A stretch of DNA of 64,000 nt from Glaucostegus cemiculus (Eukaryota). Below the pieces are notes generated by a model, which saw nothing but the letters and a program-made list of their open reading frames with translations, ran no database searches and was not told where the DNA came from. The first letter of the stretch is position 1; each line of letters starts with the position of its first letter. Of the stretch, positions 2,929-60,888 are shown one piece after another. A program made the position numbers and the translations under genes. The stretch lies in NCBI GenBank assembly GCA_976551045.1, contig CDPCPM010000418.1, positions 744,001 to 808,000 of the forward strand, read 5' to 3'.

Positions 2929-2934
2929 ATGATG
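2929..2934 (+). CDS. TMPRSS5: TMPRSS5 putative coding exon 1 (ATGATG only)
   Basis: ATGATG|GTAAGC is a strong phase-0 donor that matches the phase-0 acceptor at 6905. There is an in-frame stop upstream at 2917-2919. Confidence 0.55.
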
Positions 2935-5900: not shown

Positions 5901-8900
5901 ATTAAAGATCATGGAGTGGCTATGTTAACATAAAGGATAAATTATTCTTGTACATTTGCATTAAGGTGTGTTCAGGCAATAGTTACCGAGTATTAATAAT
6001 TGACTTTAGTGGCCTGGAATGGAGGTAAGCAAACAAGTTAAGATTGTCAAAGAAAAGCAAAAAAAAAACAGATAGCAGAAAACTGAAATAAGAACAGAAA
6101 CTGCAGTGTTTCCTCAGCAGGTCAGGCCGAATCTATGGGAAGTTAACTGGTTCAAATTTTCATCTTAGTTCTGATAAAATATTATGAACCCAAAATGTTA
6201 ATTCAGTTTCTCTCTCCCAGATGCTGCCTGAGCTGCTGAGTATTTCCAGTATTTTCTATTTTTATTTAGGATTGCCATTGCTGTTCGCAATAGTTAAAGC
6301 TGCTTCCAGTGGGCAGCAGTGGACATTTGTGCTAAATAATTTTGTATATATCTATTGATTTCCCATTCAATGTCCTCCACTCCAAACCCAATCCGTCCAG
6401 TCTCTCCTCATAACTGAAACGTTTCATCCCAGGCATCATTCCGGTGAATCTCCTCTGCACCCTCTCCAGTGTAAGAGGTTTAGAGGGGATCAGAGGAAAA
6501 TGTTTTTTCACCAGATGGTAGCTAGAATTTGGAACACACTGCCCGAAGAGATGGTGGAGGGAAATACTCTCTCAACATTTCATAAGTATCTTGATGAGTT
6601 CTTGAATCACCAAGGCATAGAAGGCAACAGACCAAGTGTTGGTAAGTGGGATAAGTATACATGGGTACTTGATCATCAGCATGGACTTGGGGGCTGATGA
6701 TCATCTACTCATCTACACTTATCCTATTTATGCTGTATAACGCTATGACTGTTTGTCTGTTATCACTGTTCTGAAAAGCCTTGGAATATTTTGCTATTTT
6801 ACAGATTTTTTAATGCGAGATGTTGAAGTATTTCTCAAAATATATATTCAGAAAGTCTACAATACTTAGTTGCTCATTTCTAAAATTCTGATTCATCGCT
6901 GCAGGATTTGAACCTTGAGTCCTCAGGAACATCAGGACCTCTGGAAACACAGCAAGAGGATGTACCTTTATTGGAGCTGACGAAAACTGATGCACAGTCT
7001 TCAGAAGACCCCAGCCGGGGTTCTGAAACAACATTGTCCGATTCAAAGGATGATTCTTCCCACACCGCCAAACCCACTGAGTTGGGACTGCCTACATTAG
7101 AAGGGACAAGGTTGGAAGAACCCCCCAAAACTTGCTCAGTAAACACCACCCAGGATTCTGAATCAATATTGTCAGGTTCAAAGAACGATGTTGTCTGTAC
7201 CATCAAATCTCCTGAGCTCAAGGAGGTGGACGTGCCATTGTTAGAGGCAACGACATCTGAAGCGTCACCTGTAGTACCATCGGAGCTTCCCACAGAAGCA
7301 GTCCGGCGCAGACGCTGGCGCCATCGATTCAGTAAGTAGAGTAAGACTAATCCTCCATTTGTAATGCACACACCAGCTGATGAGACACAGGTTTCCTCCA
7401 GTCCCTTATTCTAGGCTGGTAATTCTACAACAGGTTCCAACCCTGAAGGGCATAGTTTCTACATTATACTTTGTCCAATTTCTTCATTAAGACTAATAAA
7501 CAGAACAAAATGTCCCCATGTTCTATGGAATGGGTAAGAAAACACTGGACAAGAGAAAAGCCCATCGAAAACATAATCCATCCTAGCAGCCTTTTAACAT
7601 AACAATAGTGGAATCTACACAGACTCAGACAGAAGATAGAGGAATATGAAAGAGTGGAGTGCTTTGGGAACCAAATCCAAAATTACAACTACACCTACCA
7701 TCTATCATGTCTTCTTAATTGCTCTAGTATTGGTGTCCATATCTTCAGCCCAAGACCCTGAGTGCTTCAATTTCACTCAAAACCCCTGACCTACCTCCTT
7801 TAACACACTCCATAAATTCTACCTTTTTGAACAAGTGTTTGGTCACATCCTACCCCCAGACTTAAGGACAGCTTCTACCCCACTGTGATAAGATTATTGA
7901 ATGGTTCCCTTATACAATGAGATGGACTATGCCTTCATGATCTACCTTGTTGTGACCTTGCACCTTATTGCACTGCACTTTCTCTGTAGCTGTGACACTT
8001 TACTCTGTACTGTTATTGTTTTTACCTGTACTACCTCAGTGCACTCTGTACTAACTCAATGTAACTGCACTGTGTAATGAATTGACCTGTATGATTAGTC
8101 TGCAAGACAAGTTCTTCACTGTACCTCAGTACAAATGACAATAATTAACCAATACCAATGTGGACTGGTGCATAATTTAGTCTGATAATGCTCACAGAGC
8201 CATGAGCCATTTTACTACCACAAGGCACTATGTAAATACAGCCTTTGTTGAATTGACCAAGAATTATTGGTAGAGGAAAGACATCAGTAAATCGACTTGA
8301 GCTTCTGTTCTACAGGACCCCGCAGGCGGCCACCACGTGCGACCAAGAGGATCCTGGCACTCCTGTGTGCAGTGACCATCCTTTCTATGATCATAGTTGG
8401 AATTTATTTTATCGGTAAGACAACTAAAAGATTTCTCTGAAGAACGTTGCATAAACGTGGAATTTTTTGAAGGGTTCATCTCTAATTTTAATCCAATGAC
8501 TGATAACTTGTGAATTCTTACATCTTTTCACAATGGGCATTGCTTCCTCCTGTATTGGACCTCCAAGTAACTGAGTGCCTACTGCATCACTCACTCCACA
8601 GCAGCTCTGTGTAATTTCACAAAGCAGAAGTGAATGCATTTGCGGGAGGAGCCACAGTTCTGTGAAACATTACAGAATAGACTCAGTAAACAAATGCAGT
8701 CATCTCCTACGTCACACATCAATATCGTTGCTAAAACATCAGTCAAAAGCATACAGAAAGATTACTCTTAACTCCTCAATATAAAGGAAAAAGAGAATTC
8801 TTGAAAACATTTTACTCCTCTCTTGAAGTGGTGGCTTACAGCTCCCATAAATGGCCTGTGTTCTTCAGTGTTGTTCCTCTATAACTATAAGGAGATATAG

Positions 8901-14900: not shown

Positions 14901-17900
14901 ATATTTTATTCCCCTATATTTATCCAGAAGCATTAAGGGCAATCATTATGATTCATAAGCAGCCAGAGTAGAGCTGTCAAGTGGCCATAATCTCAGACCC
15001 AAGGCCCCAGTTGTTTTCTCAGGTGGACGTCAAGAATCCTCTGGTACTACTTAAGAGAAAAGTAACAGGGTCCTTAGTGTCTTGGCCATTATTTATATCT
15101 CAGCAAACATCACCAATGTGGATTTAGTTGCAAGTTCATCCCCTATAATTTGGGTTAAACATACTTTACTATCAATAGTGAATTTCACTCTGCATCTGAA
15201 ATTCTTTTCACTAAGGAGTGAATTTCAAAGACAGTGTAGAATGTAAAGATGTTATTTTATATCATGTTTAGTGTTACCAATGGGGGCTGAATTTCTAGCC
15301 AATTATCTGGTTCTGCATTCTTATTTGTGGGAACTTGCTAAATGCAAATGGCTTTTGGATTTCTTATATTTTAACAGTCACCAATAGTTCATAAATTCTT
15401 TATTGATTATGAAACATTTAAAACTTCCTGAGGTTTTGAACAGCGCTATATAAATGCAAATTCTTTCTTTAATCTAAATGGCTCAGTGTATATGGGATTT
15501 ATAGTCTATAGACGGTGGATCTCTTGTATCAGGCAATAACATTTGTGTTAAACACACAGAATACATGGATTCAATTCTTGGAAGTGTAAATGGAAATGCT
15601 GTGGTCACATTCCCCTAGACTGATAGATGTTCCTACATCTGGAGGCAACCACTGCTAGATTACATACCCTTCCATTCTTTCTTGTCCTGTTACTCTTGCA
15701 AAAATTGGATATTGGTATCACGGGATTGGTCCAAACCCATCATGTTATATCATTCTAAATTAGTATTATATTTCATCCTGTGTTTAGTTAACTTCAAAAT
15801 TGGATCTGTAGTCTGGATTTGGGAAATATAGTATTGTCAGGGTTAAGGTTGCGGCCTGAGGTAATTAAGCTCTGGAATTTTTGGGTTGGGATAATTTTGT
15901 GTTCTGGTTATGCTTTGGGGTTAGGGTCCGAATCCAGCTTAAAGTCTGGTGTAGTTTAGATCACTGTGAAGGTTCAGGTTGGGTGTGGGCAACCCAAAAT
16001 ACCTCCATGCAATTCTCAATATATACACAAACTATTATATGTATATCTCCCTTGAAACTCCATTCAGGTTGTGATTTCTCTGTTGTAATTCCAGTGGGAG
16101 ATCAGTAGACCCCAGATTGGTAACTTTTCCAAGAGAATAACTGCAGAGATATGATCAGTATTCAGGAACACCCTCAAGGAAGTATGAGGAGAGACATGGA
16201 GATCCCAGCCTGGTGAGTCGTCAAATAAAAGCCTCTTTCACTTTAACTGTTTTTTTTTCCTTTAGTGAGGCATTTGGAGAGGCCCATTGAAGACAAAAAC
16301 TCGATACCAACTGGAGGCAATGCACCCACAACTGACTGCAATGCAACTGATGAAAACGTCAGCAGCACAGCTCCAGTCACAGGTTGGTGATATATTCTAC
16401 AGCTGTTTGAAAAGACCAGTTGAATTGGCAAATGCATAGTCAAGGCACTATTTGACCAATACTTGATCTATAGTGATCTCAAGAGGGCCTAAGGTAAGAG
16501 TTTGTCTGCTCCTGGAATTAGATGACTCTTGGTGTAAATTGTATCCTAGACTCAATCAGCTCCTGGAGTTAACCATTTCTGTTTTTAGTCATTCCTGTTG
16601 TCATTTTATTCAAGAGTCAGACTTCAACCATGGTCCACATCCAGATTTAATTTGCACCTGGTATTAGTTTGCGTATAGAGTCGGTCTTCAGCCAGAGATA
16701 GTCTGGTCCTAAAGAATAATCTCCTGGTATTTATCTGTTCCTGCAGTTACATTACTTGTGTAAATCTGCTTCTGGAGTTCATCTGTAATTCTAGTTTGTA
16801 CTCAGAGTTACTCTTCCCTTATAGTCAGTTTACTCTTGGGATTATAGATCTGGTATTAACCTGTGGTAGCCTGCACCTGGAGTTAATGTGTTCTGAGAAT
16901 GTTCCTTCAATGCCCCATTTGAGGAAAGTGATGAAATGGAGCAATTTGCACCCTAACTCAGAAGGTGATGTGATGTCTTCTTGGTTTGTAAATATTTTAC
17001 ATTCAGTTTCTTTCAGAATTAATTCTGGGAACTCGCTATTGGAGATACATAACCAATCGTGGCAAGGCTGGCTTCCTGCATGTGACACCAAGTGGAACTC
17101 CTCGCTGGGTAAACTGATGTGCAGATACATGGGACATATCAAGTATGCTGTACATTCCACACTCAATGCTCACTGAGAACTTTTAATTGTCTTGACAGGG
17201 AGTTAAATCTTTTAACAAAATATCTCAGTATCAATTCATTGGAAAATTACAAGGAAATTGCAGCACGGAAGGTAGTCTTTTGGTCCAGCTGTTCTGTGTC
17301 AGTGTTTTTATCCACAAAATTACCTTCTTTCCAGTCCTGCTTCCCTACATCATTTTTTGTTCATTCAAGGATATAGGCATCAGACATCCCAAAACACGTT
17401 TGAACTAAATGGTTTATGAGGCCATTTCAGAGGCCACTTAAGAGTATCACTACCCTGTTAAAATCCTACCTAGTTATAGAGCCTCGAGTTGCCTTTGCAA
17501 CTTGAATTGCTGTTTTCAGTGGTTAAGCTGGATGGTTATTTTGGTGTGAACTCTGATCTCACTATTCATTTACATTGCAATTGTAAAAAGTGATATTCTT
17601 CGCATGATTTCTGAGTCTGTATCCCTAGATCCCTTTGATCCTCGGCACTATATTTAGACCATTATTGTTTTCATGCTGCAGACAGGATCTCAAAATCCAA
17701 ACAATTGTACTGCTATGATCTGGCCACTTCCAACTTCCGCTGCCAGTTGCCCCATTCATGGGGTTTGGGGAAAGCTCTGCAGTTGAGTGCAAATGAAGTG
17801 TAGACATGCTGCCAGGGACATAATTGGACCTATTGGCATTAGTGGCAGCTTAGGAAGTCTGAGGAAAGGTGCTATCCTAGGGGTAGAAGTGAAGTATCTG

Positions 17901-20900
17901 GCTCAGGGTCATGCTATTCCCTACATAGAATTCGCTCCACCATCACCAAAATAACTAAGCTCGTATCTCTTCATCCTTCTTGTAAGAACAGTTTGTAATC
18001 TTTTTAAATATTGTTATGCTTCTCCTTGGAGCTGATTACATACCCAACCCTGCACTCTGTCCACTTACAGTTGATCCCCATACCCCAATGGTGCGTTTGG
18101 AGCAAGAACTGACCTAACCAGGCAAACCTCCACCAACAACCCCCTGAAGAGTGATCCTTCACCTTGCACTGGGACAGTATGGCAATGATCTCATAAAGAT
18201 CAAGCAGAGGCTAAACAAAGTTGTCTTCAGCCAGAACGCAGGATCAGTTCATCCCAAAGGAGAAGCAGCATTCTGAAGGGAGGATGAAGCAACCGTGGCT
18301 GACGAGGAGAAGTCAAGGACACATAAGAGCAAAAGAGAGGGCATACAACATTGCAAAAATTAGTGGGAAGCTAAAGGATTGGGAAGCTTTTAAAAACCAA
18401 CAGAAGGCAACTGAAAGAGCAATAAGGGGAGAAAAGATGAACTATGAAGGTTAGCTAGCTAATAATATAAAAGAGAATACCAAAAGTTTTTTCAGATATG
18501 GAGAGAGTAAAAGAGAGGCAAGAGACATCAGACTGCTGGACAATGACACTGGAGAAGTAATAATGGGGAACAAAGAAATGGCAGATGGACAGAATAAGTA
18601 TTTCACGTCAGTTCTCTGTGGAGGACACCAGCAACACACCAGAGATTAGAAAGTCGGTGGGCAGAAGCGAATGTAGTCGCCATTACTAAGGAGAAGGTTC
18701 TTGGGAAAGTAAAAGGTCTGAAAGTAAATGAGTCATCTGAACAATATGGACCACACCCAGGGTTGTGAAAGAGGTAACTGAAGAGATTGTGGAGGCATTA
18801 GTAGTGAACTTTCAAGAATCTCTAGATTCATGAATGGTTCTGGAGCACTGGGAAATCACAAATGTCACTCCACGCTTTAAGAAGGGAGGGAGGGAGGCAA
18901 AAGACAGGAAATTATAGGCCAGTTAGCCTGACTTCACTGGTTGGTAAGATGCCAGAGTCCATTATTATGGATGAGGCTTAAGGGTACTTGGAAGCACATG
19001 ATAAAATAGGCTGAAGTCAGCATGGTTTCCTTAAGGGGAAATCTTTGAGGAAGTAACAGGCAGGATAGACAAAGGAGAGTCAGTGGATGTTGTTTACTTG
19101 GATTTTTAGGAAGTCTTTGACAAGATGCCGCACATGAGGCTAATAAACAAGATAGGAGCCCATGGTATTACAAGAAAGGTACTGGCATCAATTGAAGATT
19201 GGCTGACTGGCAGAAAGCAAAGAGTTGGAATAAAGGGGGCCTTTTCTGGTTGGCTGCCGGTAACTAGTGGTGTTCTGCAGGGGTCAGTGTTGGGTCCACT
19301 ACTTTTCACGTTATATGTTAATGATCTGGGTGACAGAATTGAGGACCTTGTGGCCAAGTTTGCAGATGATACGGAGATAGATGGAGGGGCAGGTGGTGTT
19401 GAGGAAGCAGGAGTCTGCAGAAGGACTTGGACAGGTTGGGAGAATGGGCAAAGAAGTGGCAGATTGGTATTGGTTTATTATTGTCACTTGTACCGAGGTA
19501 CAGTGAAAAGCTTGCCTTACAAACCAATCGTACAGGTCAATTCGTTACACAGTGCAGTTACATAGTTAGTACAAAGTACATTGAAGTAGTACAGTAAAAA
19601 CAGTAGCAGTACAGAATAAAGTGTCACAACTACAGAGAAAGTGCAGTGCAATAAGGTGCAAGGTCGCATAAGGTAGAATGTGAGGTTACAGACCATCTCT
19701 ATGACGGAATACAGCATAGGGAAGCGTACAGGAAGGAATAAAGACATAGACTATTTTCTAAATGGGGAGCAAATTCAGAAATCAGAGGTGCAAAGGGACT
19801 TAGGAGTCCTAGTGCAGGATTCCCTAAAGGTTAACTTGCAGGTTGAGTCTGTAGTAAGGAAGGCAAATGCAACATTAGCATTTATTTCAAGAGGACTGGA
19901 ATATAAAAGCAAGGATGTAATTCTGAGGCTTTATAAGGCATTGGTCAGAGCACATTTGGAGTGTTGTGAGCAGTTTTGGGGTCCATATCGAAGGAAGGAT
20001 GTGCTGGCATTGGAGAGGGTCCAGAGGAGCTTTACTAGAATGATCCCAGAAATGAAAGGGTTAATGTATGAGAAGCATTTGATGGCTCTGGGCCTGTACT
20101 CACTGGAGTTTAGAAGGATGAGGGGGATCTCATTGAAACCTACCAAATATTGAAAGGCCTGGATAGAGTGGAGTGGAGAGGATGCTTCCAGTCGTGGAAG
20201 AGTCTAGGATCCGAGGGCACAACCTCAGAAATAGAAGGGCGTCCCTTTAGAACAGAGATGAGAGGAATTTCTTTAGCCAGAGGGTCGTGAATCTGTGGAA
20301 TTCATTGCCACAGACGGCTGTGGAGGCCACGTCATTGTGCATATTTAAAGAAGAGGTTGATAGGTCCTTGATTGGTAAGGGTGTCAAAGTTTACGGGGAG
20401 AAGGCAGGAGAATGGTGGTGAGAGGGAAAAATAAATCATCCATGATCGAGTTGGAAAGGGTCCATAGGAGGTTTACAAGAATGATCACAGGAATGAAAGG
20501 GTTAACATATGAGCAGATTCGATGAGCCAAATGGCCTAATTCTGCTCCTACGTCTTACGGTATTATAGAACTCAATCCATCTATGTACCAGTTATGAGAT
20601 AATCTAAGCAGCCGTGTATCTGGCAATTCTAATAACACAGCTGTGGCATGAAGAAAACTACACAAAATGCAGTAGTTTTATAGGATACCGTTCAGTTACA
20701 GAGTGTTATAAAAAGGGTAATTAATAGTTTGTTGTATGCTACATGCAGAACAGTGTGCATTGTATGGTTTTATATTCAGGAATAAACAGGCAGCTTCACC
20801 TTAGACAGAAAATGTCCAATAGAAGAATAAGTTATCGGATAATGAATAGTCTATAAGGTGCATATACATGATAATGCACAGCCTTTTATATTCAGTATAC

Positions 20901-23900
20901 AGATCAACACACAGCATGATGCATGTCATATAGCTACAAAGTTTCACAGAAATTGCAAACGTATTGATTTAGAAGAGAGAAAAATGTTTAGAGGCAGCCT
21001 AAAATACTTCCACTTTTCCAAAAGAATGCAGCCCCAACAACACTTAAGAAGTGGACACCATTGATGAGGTAGCAAACTGACATCACATTCACCAATTTAA
21101 ACATTTTCTCCCCCCCCCCCCCCAAGAACACTGTGGTTGCACTGTGTACTATCTACAAGAAACACTACACTACCTCACCAAAGCTTCTTCAACAGTACTT
21201 CCCAAACCAGTGACCACTGTGACACCTGGAAGACAAGGACAAAGGATGCATGAAGATGCTTCCATCAGTAGTTTCTCATCCAAATAACATCCCATCCTGA
21301 CCTAGAAATATATCACCATCCTTTCTTCATCCTGAAACCTGACTATGGGAGTCCCTTCACTATAAATAATTGCAATTGATAAAGGTGATTCACCACCATC
21401 TTGTTGAGGGCAGTTAAATATTGACCTTGCCAGTGGTGCCCAAATAATTAACTGTACAAAATGTGAATTTATTCAGCTGGCTGTTGTACATCAGTCTCTG
21501 AGTCTTACAGCAGACATTTCAAATGTTCACTGGGAGAGCTTCAAACAACTTCAGTTTCCAGGGATCAAACAGTAATAATCTGTTGAATGCAAAAGCAAAG
21601 CTGATTTTCATCCAGTGGTGCACACTAAACAGAACAGGAGAAGTAGTAGTTATGGCTGCAGCTACTGGTTATAGCCTGACAAAGCACAGCCAGAGAAATT
21701 TGAATTTTATCATTTGCATTTTATTCCACAGATACCTGAGTTCCGATGTAATTAGTGTGAGTGAGATTGAACGCAATTACACACAGGGATTCGCTGAAAT
21801 TACTAATGCGCAAGACAGCAATTTAGAAAACATCTGGGGCTACAGGTTTGCTATATTTCCTCTGACTTATGCAGCTCTATAATCGCGTGTGTTTCTGCAG
21901 AAAGAAGGAATTGTAAGATATGTTCAGAAAGATAATGTGTTGGACTTGACCTTTTAAGACAGGCTGTCTTGTTGGGCCTTTTCCTAAAAATTCTAGTCTT
22001 CCGTTTTGACTGCCAGCACTAAGGTTCATCTCAATCACCAGTACTTTAAACACAGTGATACATGATACTGTTGGTACGGGAACAGCACAGATTGCTATGA
22101 GGTCCCATAATAAAGAAACAAAACAGAAGATCTCAACCAGAATTCTCAACTGAAGTCAAAATAAAAGATTGACACTTATCTAACATAGAACAGCCCAGGA
22201 ACAGGCCCTTCAGCCCACAATGTTGCACCGAACTAATTAAACTGATCAGAAGCCTACTGAACTAATCTCTTCTGCCCAATATCTACATCCCTCCATTCTT
22301 TGCACATCCATGTGCCTATCTAAGAGCCTCTTAACCACTTCTATCATATCTGCCTCCACCACCACCCCTGGCAGCACATTCCAGGCACCCACCGCTCTGT
22401 GTAAAAAAGCTTCCCCCCACATATCTCCTTTGAACTTACTCACTCTCACCTTAAATTCATATTAGTCATTCACATATTCAGTAAGCACTATATTTTATCC
22501 TATTTATGAAAAACGATATAATGTCAGAACGGCTACGGCCAACTTATTTGACTCCTTCAACTAACAGCATAAAAAGAGTCTGCAACAGGAGTCTGGAACA
22601 GTCACCATAGAAGTTCATCTTTGATGCCTCAAGCTAAACCTGGCTCTATGGAAGTGCCTGTCAATTGTACTCCTCAGCCAATGTGTCAGATCCATTGAAG
22701 TCGATCAGTGCTCTACTAAGGGAAACTGCATTGTTATTTGAATAGGCTGCTAGACTGAGGTTCATCTGCTTTCTCAGATAGAGATAATCCATGCAATTGA
22801 ATGTGACAAGAGCAGTAACGTTCTTTCCCATACCCTGTCCAATACTTATTCCCTAAACATCATCACTAAAACAGATCATCAGGTTATTAACACACCACTG
22901 TGCTTGTGCTGTCACGTTGCCTTCTTTGCAACTGAGACTATCCATCAAAAGTGTCTAACTGTCAAGCAGTTTGGGAAGGGACAGATCTGTAGAAGTGCTT
23001 CAGAAACATTCTTTCTTCTCAAGAAACTTTCTTTGTCCAAAATCACCAGAACAAGAAGATATAAAATACTTTCACCGTCAACTTACTCATTAGTTGTTTT
23101 TGGTGCAAGATATTTCTGCTCCTCATGACATCTTTGTGAAAATAGTTCCTTGTTTTTTTTTGCCAGGGCTAGCTGTACATCTGGAAAAGTAATAAAACTG
23201 AAATGCTCTGGTAAGTGCATCTGCTCAAAATAGAACATTTTCTAATCACTGCTTCCATTCAGTAATCTTAAACTAAGAAACAGGTTTATAGTGCAGGCAA
23301 AGATAATGTTTCAGTTGTTGAACTATCATCTACCAATGCAGACACCCAACACACTGAAGTGACCCTACATTGTAACCCCCCTATCACGATTCTGCATCCA
23401 TTAATTTGATTCACAAGAGGGAGAGCCAGCTTTCAAGCAGTCTCATTAAGAGCCCCATATCACCGTGAACTGGTCAAAGCCCTTGCAAACTCAGAAGAGA
23501 ATTACTGATCATTAAACAATGGGATTTAATAGAAGAGGTCCTTAGCTACATAACACCAACGGTGTCCACATCAGTTAATTTCTGCAGATCCTGGACCTGT
23601 TGTGAGAATTTCCTCAGTTAGAAAAGTCGACTCAGAAAATAGATACATGGATGGAATAAGGCAAAATTTTCTGTACAGGCAACTGTTCAAGCCTACTGTT
23701 AATGCTCCACACAATTCCAATGAATGCCATTCCCATTGTGTTATACTGAGCCTCTCCACATGGTGGCGGAGTGAGTCTGCACACAAACCAATGGTGACGG
23801 CAACACCCAGTATATTTTTGAAAACGAAATCAAGAATTAAAATCATGTTGTGATTTTGCAAACCATTCTTTCTGGGGGGTGCATGTGAAGCTGGAACATC

Positions 23901-26900
23901 TGGGATTGTTCTTAGCCCTGAGAAAGTTAAGGGGAGGCTTAATTCGATTTTTCCAAGCATTTGATAGGATCAGTGAACAAATTTAAAATTGGTCAGAGAG
24001 CAAATTAAAAGAATTATGGAGCCTCCTAAAAATTGGCTGCCCACAAAAAACTGTTATGTCTCATTTTATACTGCGACGTGATGTCATGCAGGTCAACATC
24101 TGAACCAACAGACCCACAACATACCCAATCTCAGTGCAGACTGACTGTACTGAGCAAGACTGCATTACTGCCCCAATAGTTTTCTAAATCTTTCATCACT
24201 TAATGCTCTGTCTCAACTCCAATAAGCTTCCCACTGGTGTAGGGCAAATGCAGGAGAAGTGGGAAACTCTTCAACCAGTGTCACCTCTGTTTTAGAACCA
24301 GTGAAAGAAAATGTCAAGGATGGCTTGGAGCTTGGCTTCTATTCTTCTTCAAGCTTGTCTCCTGGTTTAATGATGCAGGTATTCTTGCATATAAGCACAT
24401 TCAGAGACCAAGCTCCAACTCATCATTCACATTTTTACTGAAGACTCACAACTGGTGTTCTCTACAAACCTGTCTTTACCGTCCAATGGAAAATGTGGAC
24501 CACTTGCCATCAAAAGGCACCTGTCAGAGAAATTCACCATCATTTTCAGTGCTCCAGCATAGCCTTTGGCTTGATGTGCAAAAGGCCAAGACCTCAGAAC
24601 CAGCACTAACCTCGTAGACTGCTGGGCGGCTGTGATCTCCATCTACCTGTATGCTCCTGAGGCATGGATTACCTTCAACAAACCCCAGATCCTCCAATGT
24701 CGTTGATGGGATAAGCAAACCTTCAGCTTCCCCACCCAAGCCAACAACCCCCATTAACATCTCTCAGGCCAACATCCTTGGCAATGAGGCCCTAACTTTA
24801 CTCAATGGACTACCACATCAGTTGCACACACACGATATGCATGAAACAGCCAATCTCCATCAAGACAAGAGAATAACCCAGTGGCCAGAAGAAATAATTC
24901 AAGGATGTTCTCAAAGCTTCATGAAAAATTATGGCATCCCAGTGACTCATGGGAATCTTCACCAGTGACCATCCAAAATGGAGAAGGAACATTCAGGATG
25001 CCTTTGAGAACCTTGTCCACTCATCAGTTCACAATGCAAATGGTGGAAGGAGCAAACCAGATGGTCCCAATGTCTCCTCCCACCGCTCTCATCCAGCACT
25101 TCCTGCCCAGCTGTGACAGAGTCGGCAGGCCCCACGTTTGCCTTATCGTCCCTCCGCAGATCTGGGGTCAAAGTAAAGCATCCTTGACCCTGAAGGATTG
25201 ACTAAGAAGAAGGAGGAAAACTTTCCAAAGCAAATTTAGATAAATATTTGAGGAGGAAAAATTACATAATGTGGAGGAGATTCGTTGGAAAGGCCTTTCG
25301 AGAAACCAACATGGACACAGCGGCCTCCTTCTGTGCATTCTCCAGGCTCTGATGATTCATCATCTAATTTCCCCCTCACTCGAAAGGAAGTAATGAGTTT
25401 CCCCCTCATTGCTCCCCACACCCAGATCCCCTCCCCATTCTGCCTCCCCAGTCAAGAGCATTGTTCCCATGGTCTCCATCATGAACAATCAGCACCCAAA
25501 GCACTTGCCTCACTTCACATCCACCCGCAGTTTAAGTGAAACCTATTGTAACCTATCATTCAATCCCTAACTTTTACTTTACTGTCTTTCTCAATGTGAA
25601 GCGTGTGGGGAGAAGCATGACTTTTCCATGATTGTTGGAGGACAGGAGGCCTCACAGGGGAGCTGGCCCTGGCAGGTCACCCTGTACTATAACTACAAGC
25701 ACACGTGTGGAGGGTCCATCCTTGATCAGTACTGGCTCATTACTGCAGCACACTGCGTACACAGGTAAGTCGACCTTTGATCCACGAGACTGAAGTTCTC
25801 TGAGTAAGCATGTTTCTTCTTATGTATTCTAGAGCAAAGATATTTTAATGATTTAACAGCTGACCCTACAAAATGGCAACCGAAATGAAAATGATTACTG
25901 GAGACCATACCATTGTTAGTGACTGGGGATTGACTTCAGGCACAAATTGTAACCTGTAACTATCCTATAATCTTCATTTTTCTGGTAAAATTATTTTACT
26001 TTTACCTAATTTGAGTCAAGACTCCTGTATATTGTGATTCATTGGATCTCCTTTTTAATGGGACTCTGTTTGCTGTAGTGTCCTGTTTACCGAGTTAGCA
26101 GGCATTATTTGTTGTCAAAAAAGATTGCTCGCTATGAATTCAGTTCTCACTTTGGACACATCAGCTGACATTGTGGTATCAATGGACTATGCAATAGATG
26201 TTGACACAAGAGATTCTGCAGATGCTGGAGGAACTCAGCAGGACAGGCGGCATCTATCGAGAGAAATAAACCATCAACATTTTGGTTTGAGACCCTTCAT
26301 CAGGTTCAATACAGAGATAAGGAGGAATTTCTTTAGCCAGAGGGTGGTGAACCTGTGGAACTCCTTACCACAGAAAGCAGTGGAAGCCAGATCATTGGGG
26401 ATATTCAAGAAGGAAATAGATAGATATCTAATTGATCAAGGGATATGGAGATAAGGCAGGGATTTGGACTTAGAATAGGGTTTTTTTTTCTCTCTTATCC
26501 TCTTTTTCCCCACCCTCCCTTCCCTTTGGAGCAGACTCAATGGGCCGACTGGCCTGCTTCTGCTCCATTATCTTGTGATCTTGTGATCAGGACTCAAAGA
26601 GAAAAATCCACCAAACTACAACAGCACCACCCTAGTCCACAGGTTTGAGAGTATGATTGGGATTAGTGCAGAGAGAGTGGTGGGCAGTGTGTTCAGAGGC
26701 GGTGAGGTTGGAATAGGTAATGGGAGTGGTGAAGTTGAGATGGTTAATATCCCGTTGGCATTTCGGGATGATGAAGAGTATCGACCTAAAACGTCGACTG
26801 TTTATTTCTCTCCATAGATGCTGCCTGACCTGCTGAGTCCCTCCAGCATTTTTGTGTGTGTTGCATGGGATAGTTGTTTGTCTTTGGTCGCTGGTGGTAA

Positions 26901-29900
26901 CCAGGATCTACAGCATAGGTTTGCATTCCATTGGCCTTCCATTATATATTCAGTTCTATTGGTTTTAACGGACCAACTATCAAGGGTGGCAGATTGGTAG
27001 GGAGGTGTAATGGGGTGGTGCGGTGAAAGCCAATACTATACAGCCCTGCTAGAACAAGCAACCAAAGTCAAATATCTACCCTACATATTTTTATTGACAT
27101 TACTTACTGGCTCTTATGTTTATTTTTTCTCTCTCTTCAATGAAAGATGCCTGAGCATTGAGAAAAAAACTCTCTCAGTCATTCAGCCTCAGTACCAACT
27201 CTCTTCGGCTGTAGCACAGCCTAATAGTTGGGTGAGCTTCTCAGTTACTTCAACAACGTACCTTAACTCTAGTGTCAAAATATTATTTCCTACACAAATT
27301 CACATTTCAATATTATACACTCAGGCATCCTGTTCTAATGGAAGGTATCTAAGCCAGAAAAAAGCTTTCTCCAAAGACATAGCCAGACCCAAGAGAATTA
27401 TCTTTTCTTTTATATTAGTTTAACCTTATTAAGAAGTATGGTTTAGAAATATTATGACTCACACCCATAAGAAGATAAAAGAGTGATGTATGTGTAAAAT
27501 ATATGCACAGATATGTAGAATACTTGGAGAGAGAAGATATACCAAGTATCTTGCAATATAGTGTGTCACATGACCCTTAGTGACCCATTATCTTCCTGAC
27601 ACTACATACAGCTGGAATAAGAACCCGTTCACAGGTAACAATAGGTATTTTTAGATTCACCAGACTCTTAACTCCTCCACACTGAAGTTTAGAAAAATAA
27701 AAGTGTTTTTTCCTCATAAGATTCTGAAAATGATTTGCAGAGTGGATGGCTCTCCCAACTGGAGAGTCAAGAACCAGGGGCATGGTCTCAAGATAGGGGT
27801 CAATCATTTACTACGGATACACAAGAGATTCTGCAAATGCTGGAATCTGGAGCAACACACGCAAACTACTGGAGGAACTCAGCGGGTCAGGTAGCATCTA
27901 TGGAGGGAAATGAACAATCGACGTTTCGGCTCGAGAGCCTTCGTCAGGACTGGAAGGGAAGTTGAGGCTAGATGCAGGTTGGAGGAATGAAACCTCATAT
28001 TCTACCTTGGTAGTCTCCAACCTGAATCAGAATCAGTTTTTATTGTCACAACCATATACATACATAGTATGCATAGGAGCGAGATACCGTCCTCCTCAGG
28101 TGCTCGTCCCATTAAATAACAAACAGCAGAGACACACAGACACACTGAACAAAAAAAACATTAAAAACTACCGAAGTTTAAATTAAATTAAATACGGCAG
28201 GTAATTGAATAAATAGTTATTAAAGTGAACGAGCTAGTGGCGGGCATTTAAAGTGCTGGTGCATTCCTGTGCACCTAGCATCCCTTAGTGTTAACAAGGA
28301 AGATGGAGGAATGAGAGAGTTCGCATTCTGATGGACTCAACATTGATTTCTCTAACTTCCGGTAACCCCTCCACTTCCCCCCCGCTTTGTTTTCCCTCAT
28401 ACCTGTGGCCCCCTCACCCCTTCTTTTCCCCTCCCCTGCCCTCATGACCTGCCCATCTATTCCCCACCTCCTTCCCTTTATTCCATGGTCTGCTGTCCTC
28501 TCCTACCAGATTCCTTCTTCTTCAGCCCTTTGTCTCTTCTACCTATCCCCTCTCAGCTTCTTACATCACTCCCTTTCATCCCCCCTCCCCCACCCACCTA
28601 CCATCCCCTCTCACCTGAACTCACCTGCCAGCTGCCTGCATATGCTCGTCCCCCCCAACTCCACCACTCCCCCCCCACCTTCTTATTCTGGCTTCTGCCC
28701 TCTTCCTTACCAGTCCTGATGAACGGTCTCGGCCTGAAACATCAACTGTTTATTTCCCTCCATAGATGCTGCCTGACCTGCTGAGTTCCTCCAGCATCGT
28801 GTGCGTGTCAATTTAGTACAGATATTTTTATGGACAGAGTTACGAAGCTCGCGATTTCTCTACCAATGATGGTATGGGTGCTCAGTCACCGTGCATCTTC
28901 AAGACTGAAGATTTAGAGAATCAGTGGATTTGGAGGTGGGAAGGTGTGGGGTCGAGAGGGCAATATACAGGATCAACCGTAATCTTATTGAACAGTGGGT
29001 CAGCTCAATGAGCTGTGAATCCTGCTTCTGATTCTATTTGTTCTGTTGCTAACGTACTCTTTCCATTGTAGGTTATCAAATGCTCGCAACTGGCGAGTGT
29101 ACGCTGGGATTGTGGACAGACAGCTCATTTTATTCACCAGCCTTCCCACCTACGTGGTCGAGAGAATTATCTACCGCAGCGACTATAACCACGACACTCA
29201 TGACTATGACATTGCCCTCATGAAACTGAGAAAACCAATTACATTTTCAAGTATGAACTTTAGTTTGAACAAATGCTAGAAGTGTACAGGTCCTCCCCTG
29301 GTTAGCACAGGGTTCAGTTCCTGAGAACTGTTTGTAACCGGAACAGGTTGCACGTCAGAAATGTGGCCACCCGACGATACATTTAAGCAAACACATAGGC
29401 CAACCAATGGCAATGTGTGGTTAAACCAGGACGTCTAACTCATCCATTCAGATTTCTCTTCAAAATGTAATGATATCACCACGAACCAAGTTCCCACACG
29501 GCAGAAGACGCCTGCAGCCCCAGAGTAGCCGGCAAATCCATTCGGCCCATCTCCCAAGTGCTCATTCATATGTACGAGCTGTGCATAAGTCAGGCATTTG
29601 TAGCCTGGGGAGGACCTGTAATATAGTAGCTGCTGTGGTTTACATATAATGGAACTCACTTTCAGAAGTGAAGTACAATGCATGTGCATTCAGGATGTTA
29701 TAATGAGAATGAATTTCTATCCCATGGGTTCTTCCTCCCTCTGTACCATGGATTCTGAGCAGGAGATGGATCTCCAAATGAAAAACTCCCTTTTGTTCTT
29801 TCTATCTTTCCTTTACTTGCCCCATCCCCCACACTTCTGATAGGTTCAGACTCTTGCTGTGGTATGGGGCTTTCTATCTTGACCAATGTTCCTCTGTTAT

Positions 29901-32900
29901 CCAGACGGACAGATCAGCATGGACTTAATAGCTCAGCATAGACTAAGATGGTGACCAACAACTATTCAACTGTGTTGGTATCATCGAGTTGTTTAATAAG
30001 AGAACACACAATAAAAGTGCTTGAGCCAGTTCATCCTCGGAAAACATAGTTGCATAGTTTCTGGAATTAATTATCTGATGCTTGATTTTTACTTTTCCAT
30101 AAATGTGTGAACCAATTCTATTGCCCCTCTGCCCTCACAGGTCAAACAATGGTCTTTCCAATGATGACTTCCTGCAACCCCACCAGAAGTGAGGGACCCT
30201 CATTGATACTTAAATCTTCCAAAATCCTTTTATGAATATTCACTCAACAAATTGTGAGGAAACTTTCTAGTTCGGTACAGCAACTAGAAATGAAAACTAA
30301 CAGTGTAGAAGGAATGGCATAGTTGATTGTCAAAGACCAGTGTTTGGGAGTTGGTGGGACTGGATACAATAACCATGTCCTCACTCATGTACCCTATTGA
30401 AGATCAGGGGAATCACCTGACCAAGGTGTTTAAATTGTTAATGGATTTAATAGGGTAGATACTTAGAAATCATTCAATCTATCCCAGAGGTTTATGATTT
30501 TAACATTAGACGTCAGTTATTCAAAACCACATTAAGAACTTTCACATGAGTGCAGTAGAAATTTGGATCTCATACTCCCCTTTGGGGAGTTCATTAAACT
30601 TTTCTAACTGAGGTTGTTGTAATTTCATCGTGCAAGAATTCTGGACGGTGTGGAAGGGTTGAAGCAACAAGAGTTGAGATGCACAGAGCAAAAAGCTGCA
30701 GATGCTAGCCTACCGAAACAAAAACAGGAAAAGCTGGAAGCACTCAGCAGGTCAAGCAGCATCACTGGAGGGAAACAGAGTTAACATTTTATGGCAAGGT
30801 GCTAAATAGCCATGATCAAGTTAATTGGCAGAACGTGCTGGAGGGCTCAATATCCTTACGTTCCTCTTTGCAGTTTACTTTTGAACTACATCCATCCTGT
30901 CCTTCACACAAAAGCAGCATTGCCAGGACAACGTGCTTTCCTCAACCAATTTCATAAATATGGACCAAATGTTCAGTCAATGAAACAATTAATTTGGGCG
31001 CAAAATGACCACTCAATTGGCCAACACAACAACTGAGTGCACATCAATATATTTTTTTGAGACAAGTTGTGTGGAAGTATAAAGCTTCACTTCAGTGCAA
31101 ACGTTTCTTTCATAAGAACAGCAAATGATAAGAGTACACAGGAGAGCTGTCTGCACCCTTTAAGAAAAGTCACTGTTCCAGTTCCACTGACATTGACCTG
31201 CCTTTTTCTTCACTGATGGTAACAGATTGCTGTCTGTTTCTTTCTTCCCTTTATTTCACATTCCCAGCACCTATAAGTATCTTCATGCCATTGCTTCTGT
31301 TACAGATACAGTGAGGGCAATCTGTCTGCCAAGATACAATCAGCAGATCGTACCGGGTAAGAAGTGCTGGATATCAGGCTGGGGACAAGCAAGCGCAGAT
31401 GCCTGTAAGTATCAGACACTAAGGGATAAAGGGAGTTTATGCAGCAGATGAATGCATGGATGTGCTTCATTCAGGCTTTGCTTCTTTCAGATGATACAGA
31501 AAATATTTTAAAGGAAGCTTCCGTCCCTCTCATCAGCACCGAGAGATGTAACAGCAGCTGCATGTACAATGGTGCCATAACTCCCAGAATGCTGTGCGCT
31601 GGATACAAGGAGGGCAAAGTTGATGCATGCCAGGTGAGGTCAGATCAAAGCAAAGGAACATGGATCTAATATGTGAACTGCGGAGAGTTTGATGAAGATA
31701 TCCTGGTGCACAGGAGACTGTGTGACAACTGTGGATATACATTGCAGGGTGACAGTGGTGGCCCTTTGGTATGTGAGGACATCAGTGCCTGGCATTTGAC
31801 CGGGGTGGTGAGTTGGGGAATCGGCTGCGCTGAAGCTAATCACCCAGGCATTTATACAAAGGTTTTGGAGTTCCGAGAATGGATATACAGTGTTATTGAG
31901 GTAAGGAGACCATTCCTACAGAATTAATGAACGGTAACATAAATTGTATCCTTCATTTATAAGGGGATGAATTTAGTTATACTTAATAATACTCTATCTT
32001 TCCACGTGAGCAACATCAGCCTTCTAATGCAGCCTCCACTAGTTAAAAGATCCACACATCTAGGGATATATTCACTGGACTGGCCAAAAATTGGTACTAA
32101 CTATAATTTCTCAACTTCAAAACTTCCAGTAATAGTGTGTTCATCACTGTTAATTCAGAATGAATAGCTGTGCTTACTTGTGACTTCACACTTCACTGAG
32201 GCAAACCAGATCCAAGGAAAGTACATGTAAATAACAGCAACTTTTATTTGTATAACACCTTTAACATTGGAAAACATCCCAAAGCATCTCACAGAAGTGT
32301 AAGCAGACCTTGAACTATATAAAGTCAAAGTTGAGTTTATTGTCATATGCACAAGTACATGTATATACAGGTGCAATGGAAAACTTACTTGCAAGTAGCA
32401 TCACAGGCACATAGCATCATATTATCAGCATTCACAAGAAAAACATTAATTATACACAATTTTTACAAGAAAGAACACAATTAAAACAAAAAAAAGTCAA
32501 TTTTAGTGCAAAGTGTTCAAAGTGCTCATAATGTTGCTAAACTCTAGTGATTAGGGTTGTGCTGGTTGGTTCAAGAACCATATAAGGAAGTATTAAGGCA
32601 AATAGTCAAAAGTACAGACAAAAAAGTAGATTCTAATGAGGACAGAGAGGCAGGGGGTACAGAGAATGAATCCCAGAGTGTAGGGCTCTTCATTTTGTAT
32701 ATCTAAACCCATCTAATCATCTCTAGTTAACTTGCTTAAAATAAAAGCAGGTTGCATTGCAGACAGGTCTTGTTTGGTTTATATTCAATGGGAATCTATG
32801 ACAACTATTATTGTATTAACACTACAAATTATACTAAACACTGCTCATTGAGGGAACATCAAATTTACACAATAATACTGATTAATATGGAAGTGATTAC

Positions 32901-36123: not shown

Positions 36124-36685
36124 GACAACTCTGTGTTTTAGAAAACACTCTGGAATCTATGAAACAAGAAGAAGAATGCTCTGCACAGAAGCAGAAAGGA
36201 GCAGATCTGATGGTTTTGTATGTCTCTGGGCATTAGACTTTGAGAACCTGTGTGGAATATTCCATCAGTGCAAAGAAAGTTGTTGTATCAGAGTCACTGA
36301 GTGAGAATCATCATGTGTGTTTTTTTCCTCCAGAAAATGCTCAGTGATTTGTGAACTTTTTTGCAGCCTGTGTGAAATTTGTGTCAGAAAGGGTTTTCCC
36401 CTTATTAAATCATATCAACAAGCTGCTTGATATTTTACAGCTGTTTGGGTCTGAGTATACCAACATGGACCTCATTTTTGTTTTACACATTTCACCAATC
36501 CTGGTGAACATCTGGTTGGCATGGACAATTTGGGCTGAATAGCCTGTTTCCAAGCTGTAAAAACTCCCTGACTCTATGACTCAATCCACTGTTTGAGGAC
36601 CTGCCCTGGCTTTGAGTCAAATGTGTAAAATGAGTGGTTCTCAGACTACTTTGGCCATAATTGTTCAAATCCACATTGAAGACAC

Positions 36686-36691
36686 AATAAA
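36686..36691 (+). terminator. Candidate polyadenylation signal for TMPRSS5
   Basis: AATAAA followed by T/GT-rich sequence, about 560 nt after the putative stop. Confidence 0.4.
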
Positions 36692-40200: not shown

Positions 40201-40435
40201 AGAGTCCTGCTCACTGAAAATGAACACCAAGCACAGAGACTCACCTGAATGTTGCACAGCTCCAGTGAACCCAGTTTGATTCTGACAGTCCATGTGGAGT
40301 TTGTATTGGTTTCCCCCCAGTGCTCCAGTCTCCTCCCACCTCCAAAAGGTGCGCTGGCTTGCAGATTAATTGGCCACTGTAAGTTATCCTCAGTGTGAAA
40401 GGGTGGCAGAAGAATCAGGGGATGGAGGTAGTGAA

Positions 40436-40693
40436 TGGTATTGGGTTATTATTGTCACTTGTACCGAGGTACAGTGAAAAGCTTATCTTACAAACTGATT
40501 GTACAGGTCAATTCATTACACAGTGCAGTTACGTAGTTAGTACAAAGTGCATTGATGATGTACAGTAAAAACAGTGAAAGTGCAGTGCAATAAGGTGCAA
40601 GGTCACACAAGGTAGAACGTGATGTCATAGACCATCTCATTGTATAAGGGAACCGTTCAATAGTCTCACCACAGTGGGGTAAAAGCTGTTCAT
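40436..40693 (-). mobile_element. Rex/Babar-like LINE 3' tail
   Basis: Nearly identical to the tail inserted at 19463-19710. Confidence 0.7.
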
Positions 40694-41331: not shown

Positions 41332-42626
41332 TTATGAATTAGCTTTTGACGATTCTTCGGCTGTGAGTACACTGACCACACTGTGTTTCCGATGTTTCAC
41401 AGCTAACTGAAGGGGAGTGTTCTGATTCTCATCCCTAGCCTTCAAGTCAGCACCGTATGTAATCAGCGTCTTTACAATGGTTACACCACCACTCAGAGCT
41501 GCCAAATGCAGCGATGTCCACCCAAGTCGACTGACGGCATTAACATTGGCTTTGTGATCAAGCAACTTCATAAGACAGTGGAGTCTGCCTCTGTGGGCAG
41601 CAATGTGCAGTGCTGTCCATCCTGATGCTTCAGTAGCATCAGGATTGGCACCTCTTTCTAGGAGCTCAGAGACAACTTCCTCTTGGTTGTAGCAGGTTGC
41701 CAGATGTAAAGGAGTCCATTCACTGTCTCCACTGACATTAAGGTCAGATAAACTATCAATCAGAAGTCGTACTGTTGTTATTTGACCTTTCAAAGCAGCA
41801 AGATGCAGGGGTGTCCAGTTTTGCAAGGACTTTTGATTGACATTAGCTCCGTGCTTCAGGAGGTGCCTGCAGATACCTGTGTGGCCATTCAGTGCTGACA
41901 AATGCAGAGGGGTGTAATGAGAGCGGTCTAGACAATTGATATCAGCTCCACTGTTCACCAGCAGCCTTGTGACCCTGAAGAAACCCCGCTCAACCGCTAC
42001 ATGGAGGGGAGTCTTCAGGCCAATCTGTGCTTCATTGAGATCAGCTCCTTGACCAATCAGTAGCTTCATGATGTTGTAGTGACCATAATAAGCGGCGAGA
42101 TGAAGAGATGTGCGACGATCTGTCTCCTGTAAATTGACATTGGCCTGTCGAGCGAAGAGCACCCGGATTATGTTCTCATGGCCGTTCTGAGATGCCAGGT
42201 GGAGAGGTGTCCACCCGTCATGCTCCTTTACATTGATGTGGGCATCCTTGTCCAAAAGCAGCCGGGCAATGCGCTCATCCCCATTTTGAGAAGCAAAATG
42301 TAGAGGTGTCCATTTGTCTTCATCCACTAGATCCACTTGAGCTCCCTCCTGGATTAATAACATGCACAGATCCACAAGACTTTTCTGTACGGCTAGTATC
42401 AGAGGCGTGACCCCTCTGGATGTTTGAGCATTTACAGAGCCTCCGTATTTCAGTACAAGCTGAACAAACTCCATATCTCCAGTGAGAACAGCCAAGTGCA
42501 TCAAAGTGTAGTCTTCAACAAAGCTCAGGGTAACATGTTCTTTTTTGAATATTCTCTTCAAATTACTGATGTCTCTTTCCAGTAGAGATTGTAACAGCTC
42601 CCTTCTAGAATCAATGGAGACTTCAC
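41332..42626 (-). CDS. ANKK1: ANKK1 last exon, about 12 ankyrin repeats
   Basis: Lies within ORF 41332-42702 with TPLHLA-type motifs at 33-aa spacing; acceptor ttattgtag|GT GAA. Confidence 0.95.
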
Positions 42627-45600
42627 CTACAATAAGTAGATAAGAATGTAAGAAATAGAAGCAGCGATCAGCCAATGCAATACCTGGAGCCCTCTCTGTC
42701 ATTCAATATGATCCATAACAAAAACAGAAAATGCTGGGGACAGTCAGATGGTTAGACAGCATCTGTGGAGAGGGAAACAGAATCAATGTTTCAGGTCAAT
42801 GACACTCCCTGAGACAACAGTCACTGACCTGAATTTGGTACATTAATCCACAACACATTTTGTGCTTGCCAGCGAAACAAGTGAAGCACAATGAAGCAGG
42901 AACAAGTTTTACCGAAAGATGTTTACAGCAAAGAACTGTATGAAAAGAGTGGCCTAAGTTTTTATCCATGTAGGTTTGGAGTTAGTACTTTGACAACTAC
43001 ATTTTGAGAATGAAATTTCACTCCTGTGAACAAACTGTGAGGAACACTGACCATACTGCAAGGAAGAAGGACAACAGGAGACTATTCAACCAGATCAGGG
43101 TTTATTTGCATCTTAATTCTGTTGAGTAGCCTTGGTCCTGAAGCCCTCAGTATCTCTACCCAACACTAATGTATCAATTACAGTTGTAAACTCTGGCTTC
43201 AAGCTTCAATAGTTTGAAGGGAAACTGCTCGGTGTGAAGGAGGGCTGTTTGACTTATAAGGAGTGGATCTAATATTATAGATTGCAGCTTCTTACATAAG
43301 CCTCCCTCCTTCCCACATAGCAGAAGGTATTGCTTTTCCATATCTATCCTTTCAATCTTAAAGCATGCATAAGTGTCCTGTAATTAAAAACGGTGAATGC
43401 TAGATATACTTAGCAGGTCAAGCAGCATCTGTAAAGAGAGAAACAGTTAATACTTCCAGTCATTGATCTTCCATCAATGCTGCCTGACCTGCTGAGTATT
43501 GACAGCATTTTCTGCTGCATTTAATCTTTCCAACATACACGGTTTCTGTCAGCCAAATCAGCCAAGAGCACCCAGATAAATTGTCATTCAGCCACTGACT
43601 TGCAGACTGTTCTCTGTGATGGTCCCAGGCCTAATTTCTGAACCCTACCTCATCATAAATTCTTACATGTAGAAGGCAATTTTGATCCAATTAGCAGTTA
43701 GAAGCCAGCAACAGGGCTGTTGAAATGCACTTGTGACTTAGCCACTACCTCCCTCACCTTAATTTCTCCCCAGCGTAGTCCTGATTTTAACTAGCACTTT
43801 TGCAGAATTAGCAAAGCACCCAGTTTGTATATCAGGGTTGATGAAGTCATTGAAACCTGACTACAGTCTTTGTCATTGGAAGCTGACTGCAATCTTTGTC
43901 ATTGGAAGCTGACTGCAATCTTAAACCCAGTCTGAGCCGGGGGAGACCGTTCTTAGATTTGTGTCAGATCAAGACAGTCAGGGGCGATTTCATGTAGAGT
44001 TCATTTTCCTCAATTTGCTTCACAGAGACGGAAAGAACAGGAGTTTTGTTTGATAAATTGCATAGTTTATGGCTTTAAATTTAAATGAGATGGGATGCCT
44101 CAGACTGCGACAACTCCACAGATATAATCTATACAGCACTTCAAGACAATGAAAAATTAGCCTGGGATTTGGTCAACATCCAGCTTAACCTCTGGTCTTT
44201 CCCAAATGGCCTAATTTAACACTTAAATTGAAACTGAGTCTAGGAAGTTGACAGTCTTTGCAAGCAGAAAAGCTTTCAATTCAGGCACTGTGAAGATAAA
44301 GAATTCTTCAGAATAATAAAAAGCCACCCAGGAGAGTAAAGTTAGCCTAGAATGTTAACCATTAACAAGAATGTGAACGGCAAATTGAAACCATATTTTT
44401 ATAATTTGCTTTCAGGCAGAGCTTAACCGTACTGTTGATGGAACGGAGGGCAGACGTGGAAACTTTCTCTTTGCTTCTCTCTCCACAATGTGCCTGAGGT
44501 GTTGAGCAACCTCTGTATTTACTTCAGATTTCTAGCACCTGCACTTTTCTTTTGCTTTTCAATTGATTTATAATTATATTTTTGCCAAAATTATTGTAGT
44601 TAATTACTAGATTGACCCGCAGGGATGTATAGAAAACCTTAAAGAAAGGAAACGGACAGAGCAAGAGTACATGGAGCAGGAGTTGGCTTTGCAGAAGTTT
44701 CTCCTGCATGCTCCACCACTCAATAATGTAATTCACCAGTCCTTTACCTTATCTGTTTTCCTGCCTGAGCTCAAGAATTTCTTTATCACCTTAGTGTTAA
44801 AAAACATATTGTCCTCAACCTTAAGTGAACTGAACAACTCAGTATGCACAGTCCTCTGAAATGCAAAATTCCAACGGTTTATAACTCTCAGAATTTGCTC
44901 CTCTACTCATTCCTATATAGTGATCCCTTATCCCATGTCCCCTCATTCTACTCTCTCCAGCCTGAGGAAACAGTACCTATCCTGATAAACCCACTCAAAA
45001 TCTTCTATCCTTTATTAAGATTACCTTGAATGCTTCTAACCACTACTGTATAATAACTGGTCTTACTTTACCTCTCCTCATAGAGCAATGCCTTCAACCC
45101 AGAAGTGTTGCTTCTGTACAAATATTTAACTGAGTGTGTTTGGATGTCTTGTCAAAAGGAGGTATCTCAGCCTGCCATTAGACCTTACAGTGGATTCACA
45201 TTGCCAATGTGTACAAATGCAACCACACACAATTAGATAAATACACGCATCAGGATATGAATTAATATTAGTTTCCAGTCTACCTTCCACCTAACTCCTC
45301 ACTGAAATGACTACCTTTAACGTGTAAACAAAGTCATTAAATGTCAGCAAGCTGTCTGGTCATTTGAGTAGAGGAGGGGTGGAGAGGGGTTTAATTAAGA
45401 TCAAATCCATTTCTGTGTTCATCTAGATATGAACAGCTTACACTCAAGGTCATAAAGTCAGGACAATATACATGTGAACAAGGAATGCACATATCCTGTT
45501 ACTAGGATTGGAAAGGCATACAGTTGAAGAGGTATGATAGTTCTATAGTTACTATAATGGACTAACATCTCAAGTGATGCCAACTCCAATCCCATCATTA

Positions 45601-60849: not shown

Positions 60850-60888
60850 GGCAAGAGAGCAGCTTTAGGGGAAAGAACAATTCACTGC

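Follow-up and report, generated by a model that had tools for sequence, protein, structure and literature searches.

A conserved methionine at the zymogen activation site of TMPRSS5 in cartilaginous fishes

TTSPs are described as being activated by cleavage at an (Arg/Lys)-(Ile/Val) bond, and the matter of which protease activates which TTSP is described in the same source as open (PMC12065894). The consequence of the cut has been set out for TMPRSS2, in which Ile16, once released by cleavage, pairs with Asp194, and the uncut zymogen is held by a triad of Asp194, His40 and Ser32; this triad is considered to mark true zymogens, and tPA, which does not have it, is active uncut (bioRxiv 10.1101/2024.02.21.581378). 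Several proteases have been described in which the residue before the activation bond (P1) is not basic. The P1 residue of protein C is Trp in 116 of 116 ray-finned species and Tyr in lobe-finned fishes, with no known activator according to the account that reports this, and the human R169W variant loses activation by thrombin and is processed by chymotrypsin instead (PMC9669250). KLK4 has Gln at P1, and MMP20, thermolysin or cathepsin C can activate it in vitro (PMC4082239).

The window, by which we mean the whole 64,000-nucleotide stretch of Glaucostegus cemiculus DNA that was analysed, carries a gene for TMPRSS5 (spinesin), a member of the hepsin/TMPRSS subfamily whose human form is mainly neural (PMC7834812). 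In all cartilaginous fish records found, the P1 residue of this protease is Met and not the basic residue of the canonical TTSP rule. Judged from sequence, the Met activation site in cartilaginous-fish TMPRSS5 is real, old and conserved, and what is new here is a lineage-wide non-basic activation site in a TTSP. No published account of it was found in a search of the open-access literature, and TMPRSS5 is not mentioned in PMC13578396.

By analogy, cartilaginous-fish TMPRSS5 would work most like KLK4 and bony-fish protein C. Protein C of bony fishes shows a similar lineage-wide swap from a basic to a hydrophobic P1 in a vertebrate trypsin-like zymogen, but the enzyme concerned is soluble and acts in coagulation, its P1 is aromatic and the lineage is a different one; cartilaginous-fish protein C has Arg (PMC9669250). 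KLK4 offers a parallel as an enzyme that prefers Arg, has a non-basic P1 and is unable to activate itself (PMC4082239), but it is secreted and single-domain with a short free propeptide, whereas the TMPRSS5 loop remains tied to a membrane anchor. The Drosophila proteases Persephone and Hayan resemble TMPRSS5 in having a non-basic site, which is opened by cathepsin, microbial proteases or Grass (PMC10732536), but these are insect enzymes, soluble and of the clip-domain type, whose P1 is His. Zymogen-locked matriptase is a TTSP that works without activation cleavage (PMC5452369), but there the lock was engineered into an enzyme whose natural P1 is Arg. The principle is already familiar from KLK4 and fish protein C, so that the surprise is limited.

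The gene is intact and lies on the + strand, with 12 exons, of which 11 were found by homologue-guided exon finding and one is a likely first exon. The 11 exons span 6905-31900, have AG/GT borders throughout and comprise 558 codons with no stops; the final short exon, with the last few codons and the stop, was not located in the window by this procedure. The features are as follows.

2929..2934, + strand: likely end of the first coding exon (ATG ATG, then gtaag), with a Met-Met start as in the sawfish protein P0001
6905..7331, + strand: exon encoding the cytoplasmic tail, which is long and acidic; an acidic dileucine-type motif, EDVPLL, lies at 6956-6973 and a second PLL at 7229-7243
8316..8414, + strand: exon for a basic juxtamembrane stretch and the transmembrane anchor (8351-8413), a helix in the stingray orthologue model
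16266..16382, + strand: stem exon, homologue-guided
17007..23210, + strand: three SRCR-domain exons (17007-17142, 21732-21845 and 23167-23210), from Pfam SRCR_2 on the sawfish orthologue
25602..25764, + strand: activation-loop exon, encoding Cys-Gly-Glu-Lys-His-Asp-Phe-Ser-Met, Ile16-Val-Gly-Gly, Thr32, His40 and His57, joined to the preceding exon in the X11 contig
25622..25624, + strand: P3 Phe codon of the activation loop
25628..25630, + strand: P1 codon ATG (Met15), the zymogen activation site, from the sequence and its relatives
29072..29250, + strand: protease exon with catalytic Asp102 (29208-29210)
31306..31404, + strand: protease exon with Cys122, the probable partner of the loop Cys, and Trp141-Gly142
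31491..31633, + strand: protease exon with Lys156 (31511) and the S1 Asp189 (31622)
31748..31900, + strand: protease exon with Gly193-Asp194-Ser195, Gly216 and Gly226
41335..60864, - strand: kinase-ankyrin gene of RIPK4/ANKK1 type (the two names are not told apart), convergent with TMPRSS5

The initial annotation had named the gene TMPRSS5, and both the domain layout and the tree discussed below bear this out. Pfam places SRCR_2 and Trypsin on the sawfish orthologue, and the cytoplasmic tail, single anchor, SRCR domain and C-terminal S1 protease domain of trypsin type, with its triad and Asp189, are the layout shared with TMPRSS5; the window ectodomain is 95% identical to a sawfish TMPRSS5-like record over 332 columns. 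The triad and the S1 Asp are intact, as had been claimed: His57 (25751), Asp102 (29208), Ser195 (31754), Asp189 (31622), Asp194, Gly216 and Gly226 are all preserved in the window, and the triad, Gly193, Asp194, Asp189, Gly216 and Gly226 are present there and in 15/15 elasmobranch rows, so that by its residues the enzyme is a catalytically complete trypsin-like S1A protease. The modelled protease domain of the stingray orthologue superimposes on the TMPRSS2 catalytic chain with a TM score of 0.95 and an rmsd of 1.6 (Foldseek). Because loop residues 320-329 of that AlphaFold model have pLDDT below 50, and because Foldseek fits it equally to zymogen and active TMPRSS2, the model cannot tell cut from uncut TMPRSS5.

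Some other features of the locus may be recorded here. The X2 database isoforms P0001 (sawfish) and P0006 (electric ray) do not have 16 residues that include Trp141-Gly142, although longer X1 isoforms exist, and the missing segment is encoded in the window by exon 31306-31404. The intron after the activation exon contains several interspersed repeat copies of 80-107 bases each (26221-28808), and a GC-rich tandem-like repeat lies upstream of the gene at 1159-1785. TMPRSS5 and the ANKK1-like gene converge with about 9.4 kb between them (31900-41335), an interval in which no receptor-like open frame of at least 55 residues was seen. In humans ANKK1, DRD2 and TMPRSS13 lie on the chromosome of TMPRSS5, with DRD2 between TMPRSS5 and ANKK1, and the name ANKK1 for the neighbour would rest on this order. 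Records of TMPRSS5 and TMPRSS13 type lie on equal-sized contigs in four sharks. The neighbouring kinase reads HLELKPGN, with Glu (GAG, 58558-58560, - strand) at the position of the RIPK2 catalytic-loop Asp, and may be a pseudokinase or a private variant; a 145-base assembly gap (49697-49841) falls within the gene.

The ATG codon at 25628-25630, followed by ATT for Ile16 at 25631-25633, stands within an open-frame exon whose borders are ag/CG at the 5' end and CAG/gtaag at the 3' end, which confirms the Met-Ile site first noticed in the initial annotation. Four sequencing runs were compared with the window over 23100-26200. A DNA contig from run X1 covers 25431-25645 with 0 differences, although X1 is possibly the source sample and is hence not independent. 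A spliced contig from run X11, which comes from another organism and is RNA by our guess, connects 23210 directly with 25602; within the activation exon its one mismatch is at 25652, and the ATG codon is retained. An X7 contig spans the P1 codon with 6 differences from the window, of which the position is known for one only, and in RNA run X18, about 18% of which was read, 0 reads fell on the activation exon, a count that says nothing about expression.

A comparison of P1 across shark, ray and chimaera orthologues, which had been proposed at the outset, gives Met in all records found. The activation-exon search yielded 18 proteins from 64 candidates, of which 15 are elasmobranch TMPRSS5-like proteins and 3 are unrelated multidomain proteases; with further cluster members added, Met occupies P1 in 53/53 elasmobranch records (15/15 exon matches and 38/38 cluster members), representing 22 named species of sharks, rays and skates. 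The chimaera evidence is one 72-residue fragment from Callorhinchus milii, found by a profile search with the SRCR-plus-loop stretch, which reads CGEKHVFSM/IVGG. Since this fragment has Met, the trait spans both chimaeras and elasmobranchs, which diverged about 420 million years ago (PMC6238376). Among bony vertebrates, for which the best 120 of 1682 matches, minus 15 elasmobranch and 29 multidomain rows, left a mostly teleost set of 76, P1 is Arg in 75 and Lys in 1.

These records belong to one gene. Maximum-likelihood analysis of 36 ectodomains unites the 15 elasmobranch rows in one clade (100/99) that is sister to bony TMPRSS5 (99/97), and the two together make a 28-row clade (100/99) apart from TMPRSS2, 3, 4, 13 and hepsin, a placement which implies that the window gene is a TMPRSS5 orthologue. 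The tree took 36 of 41 intended rows, five having been dropped because the anchor motif was unmatched, among them shark TMPRSS13 and TMPRSS3, and the chimaera fragment was left out. The stingray ectodomain is 50-56% identical to most bony-vertebrate TMPRSS5 rows among the matches listed. No second, Arg-type TMPRSS5 copy was seen among the 18 proteins, the best 120 of 1682 matches and the 15 matches listed, all from word-based searches that are incomplete. As no TMPRSS5 of jawless fishes, lungfishes or coelacanth was identified among the matches listed, the direction of the change from Arg to Met rests on the paralogues, and because these have Arg, Met at P1 is most simply explained as a single change in the cartilaginous-fish stem. 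The shark TMPRSS13 and TMPRSS3 records retain Arg at P1, and a urea-related cause of the change was dropped for this reason. Across the representative matches, a non-basic P1 occurs in 15 of the 114 protease domains parsed, mostly in large, unnamed modular proteins. P0139, P0201, P0244, P0254, P0261, P0262, P0266 and P0270 are unnamed proteases, mostly large and modular, whose activation site has Tyr, Phe or Thr at P1, and the goby polyprotease P0154, with Met before IVGG in 1/4 domains, is a separate case of Arg-to-Met change.

The change is not confined to P1. From P7 to P1 the loop reads E-K-H-D-F-S/F-M in cartilaginous fishes and T-R-A-K-L-P-R in the commonest bony residues, so that an acidic and aromatic loop stands against a basic one. 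P4 is Asp in 14/15 elasmobranch rows versus Lys in 72/76 bony rows, P3 is Phe in 15/15 elasmobranch rows and in the chimaera while the commonest bony residue is Leu (57/76), and P6 is basic throughout, with Lys in 13/15 elasmobranch rows and in the chimaera, Arg in the other two elasmobranch rows and Arg in 76/76 bony rows, all of these bony counts being drawn from the best 120 of 1682 matches. Of 344 ectodomain columns, 18 hold one residue throughout the elasmobranchs that is rare among bony vertebrates, and 4 of the 18 fall within P7-P1, an enrichment with Fisher p of 1.7e-4, or 0.0019 leaving out P1, under a test that assumes independent columns, which these are not. Invariant columns among the 15 elasmobranch rows number 5/113 in the tail, 40/98 in the SRCR domain, 6/9 in the loop and 109/236 in the protease domain; bony fishes conserve the loop well too, which makes conservation by itself a TMPRSS5 trait.

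The elements that respond to cleavage have been retained. Ile16, Gly18, Gly19, His40, Gly193, Asp194 and Ser195 are invariant in 15/15 elasmobranch rows, and residue 32 has changed from Ser to Thr in all cartilaginous fish rows, giving a zymogen triad of Asp-His-Thr; this substitution could loosen the zymogen state. The absence of the triad that characterizes tPA is thus not what is found here. Nor have the catalytic residues or the insertion sequence, whose loss would mark a pseudoprotease, been lost, unlike in lizard TMPRSS5, in which Ile16 is present in 0/7 rows and Asp194 in 1/7, with variants that include GDNGG and GESGG. The lizard rows come from skink, wall lizard, tegu, two geckos, monitor and anole; in the records P0134, P0135, P0136, P0138, P0144, P0147, P0157 and P0272 IVGG is gone and GDSGG mostly gone, which suggests a lizard-wide pseudoprotease or a decaying gene, some of the models being truncated.

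The reading that we consider probable, though with clear reservations, is that cartilaginous-fish TMPRSS5 is a true trypsin-like zymogen which is opened at Met15-Ile16 by a non-trypsin protease. A change from Arg to Met, made once in the cartilaginous-fish stem, would have abolished both self-activation and activation by trypsin-like neighbours. The retention of the insertion sequence and of a nearly intact triad suggests that the protein is still a zymogen opened at this bond; its own S1 pocket, of the type that accepts Arg or Lys, makes it most likely that the cut is made by another class of protease, and the disappearance of the basic P4 together with the basic P1 suggests that something else now recognizes the loop. 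Met15-Ile16 would be cut by a protease with no requirement for a basic residue; Ile16 would then be free to pair with Asp194, the arrangement described for TMPRSS2, and the activated enzyme would cleave after Arg or Lys. Three candidate routes may be considered: a serine protease of chymotrypsin or elastase-2 type could cut directly after Met; an endosomal endopeptidase could cut after the P3 Phe, leaving a Ser-Met dipeptide that cathepsin C would strip in register; or a metalloprotease that reads the Ile past the bond could act. The non-trypsin activator proposed in the initial annotation is also the leading reading here, but granzyme M and neutrophil elastase have little to recommend them: genes of the met-ase and chymase loci are reported as not found in sharks, though an elephant shark enzyme of granzyme A/K type may be a chymase (PMC4646688).

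The second of these routes can be related to the cytoplasmic tail, which is longer in cartilaginous fishes than in bony vertebrates (median length 157 residues versus 63) and carries an acidic dileucine-type motif. A [DE]xxxL[LI] motif, of a type known as an endocytic signal (PMC2882754), occurs in 18/23 cartilaginous-fish rows, where 5.4 are expected from shuffles, and in 1/55 bony rows with a usable tail, where 4.7 are expected; the difference amounts to one evolutionary event and is for that reason suggestive only. The PLL motifs at 6956-6973 (the acidic dileucine type) and 7229-7243 are kept in a tail that is otherwise fast-changing and internally repeated. On a speculative and rather unlikely extension of the preferred reading, TMPRSS5 has left the cell-surface trypsin-like cascade, the dileucine signals of its newly lengthened tail taking it to endosomes, where it would be activated either by a cut after the invariant P3 Phe, with cathepsin C then stripping the Ser-Met or Phe-Met dipeptide, or by a direct cathepsin cut. 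If this were true, the endosomal route would make TMPRSS5 a TTSP switched on by lysosomal proteases, as granule proteases are.

Lys156 is the basis of single-chain activity in tPA, and its presence in 15/15 elasmobranch rows, together with the Thr at residue 32 in all cartilaginous fish rows, is what might be expected if Met locked TMPRSS5 as a single chain that functions uncut, through low intrinsic activity or as a scaffold or cofactor. Zymogen-locked matriptase gives a precedent, since it supports mouse development with about 1/30 of the peptide activity (PMC5452369), and the conserved IVGG could instead reflect packing constraints in an uncut chain. We consider this alternative unlikely, though the strongest of those weighed here. 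Lys156 is ancestral, being found in 73/76 bony rows (from the best 120 of 1682 matches) in which P1 is basic, and was rejected as a compensating change; His40 and Asp194 are retained and residue 32 still has a hydroxyl; and Ile16, Gly18 and Gly19 are invariant over elasmobranchs and the chimaera but decayed in lizard TMPRSS5. The term zymogen-locked, used in the initial annotation for mutants with a non-basic P1, is not equivalent to inactive, as matriptase illustrates (PMC5452369).

Alternatively, a trypsin-like protease, or TMPRSS5 itself, held by a cofactor or exosite, might cut after Met15, with Met making activation slow and conditional. Horseshoe crab factor C activates itself at a Phe-Ile bond (not confirmed by the literature search), trypsin-like Grass cuts natural substrates after His, and an alpha1-protease inhibitor with Met at P1 inhibits trypsin (PMC10732536 for the last two). 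This is improbable given that the S1 pocket is of the ordinary Asp189/Ala190/Gly216/Gly226 type, identical to that of bony fishes, and that the basic P4 has been lost as well. A cut by a trypsin-like enzyme after the Lys or Arg that is always present at P6, after which exopeptidases would trim away His-Asp-Phe-Ser-Met as far as Ile16, is very improbable: the invariant Arg of the bony rows makes a basic P6 an old feature of the loop, and cathepsin C removes dipeptides, so that with an odd number of residues, five, left to trim, dipeptide removal alone would overshoot Ile16.

It had also been speculated that the ATG, being in frame and immediately before IVGG, starts a protease-only isoform, but this can be rejected as highly improbable, for the start context (TTTTCC-ATG-A) has neither a purine at -3 nor a G at +4, the X11 contig splices the exon to the upstream SRCR exon, and the product would have no secretory signal, when disulfides form in the secretory pathway and an initiator Met normally stays before Ile. 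ATG is a single base from AGG, but the chance that Met comes from an assembly error or marks a loss-of-function allele in this one animal, both raised initially, is negligible: orthologues from 23 named species of cartilaginous fish have Met and refute it, no stop interrupts the frame, the splice sites are canonical, and the relative's spliced X11 contig keeps the ATG.

A whole vertebrate class has a catalytically complete TMPRSS5 without a basic P1, against the rule described for TTSPs (PMC12065894). This constitutes a natural experiment on whether TMPRSS5, a poorly understood neural protease, requires cleavage at all, and on the rewiring of an activation cascade via one loop. With the lizards, in which the gene has apparently decayed, there are three states of one gene to compare.
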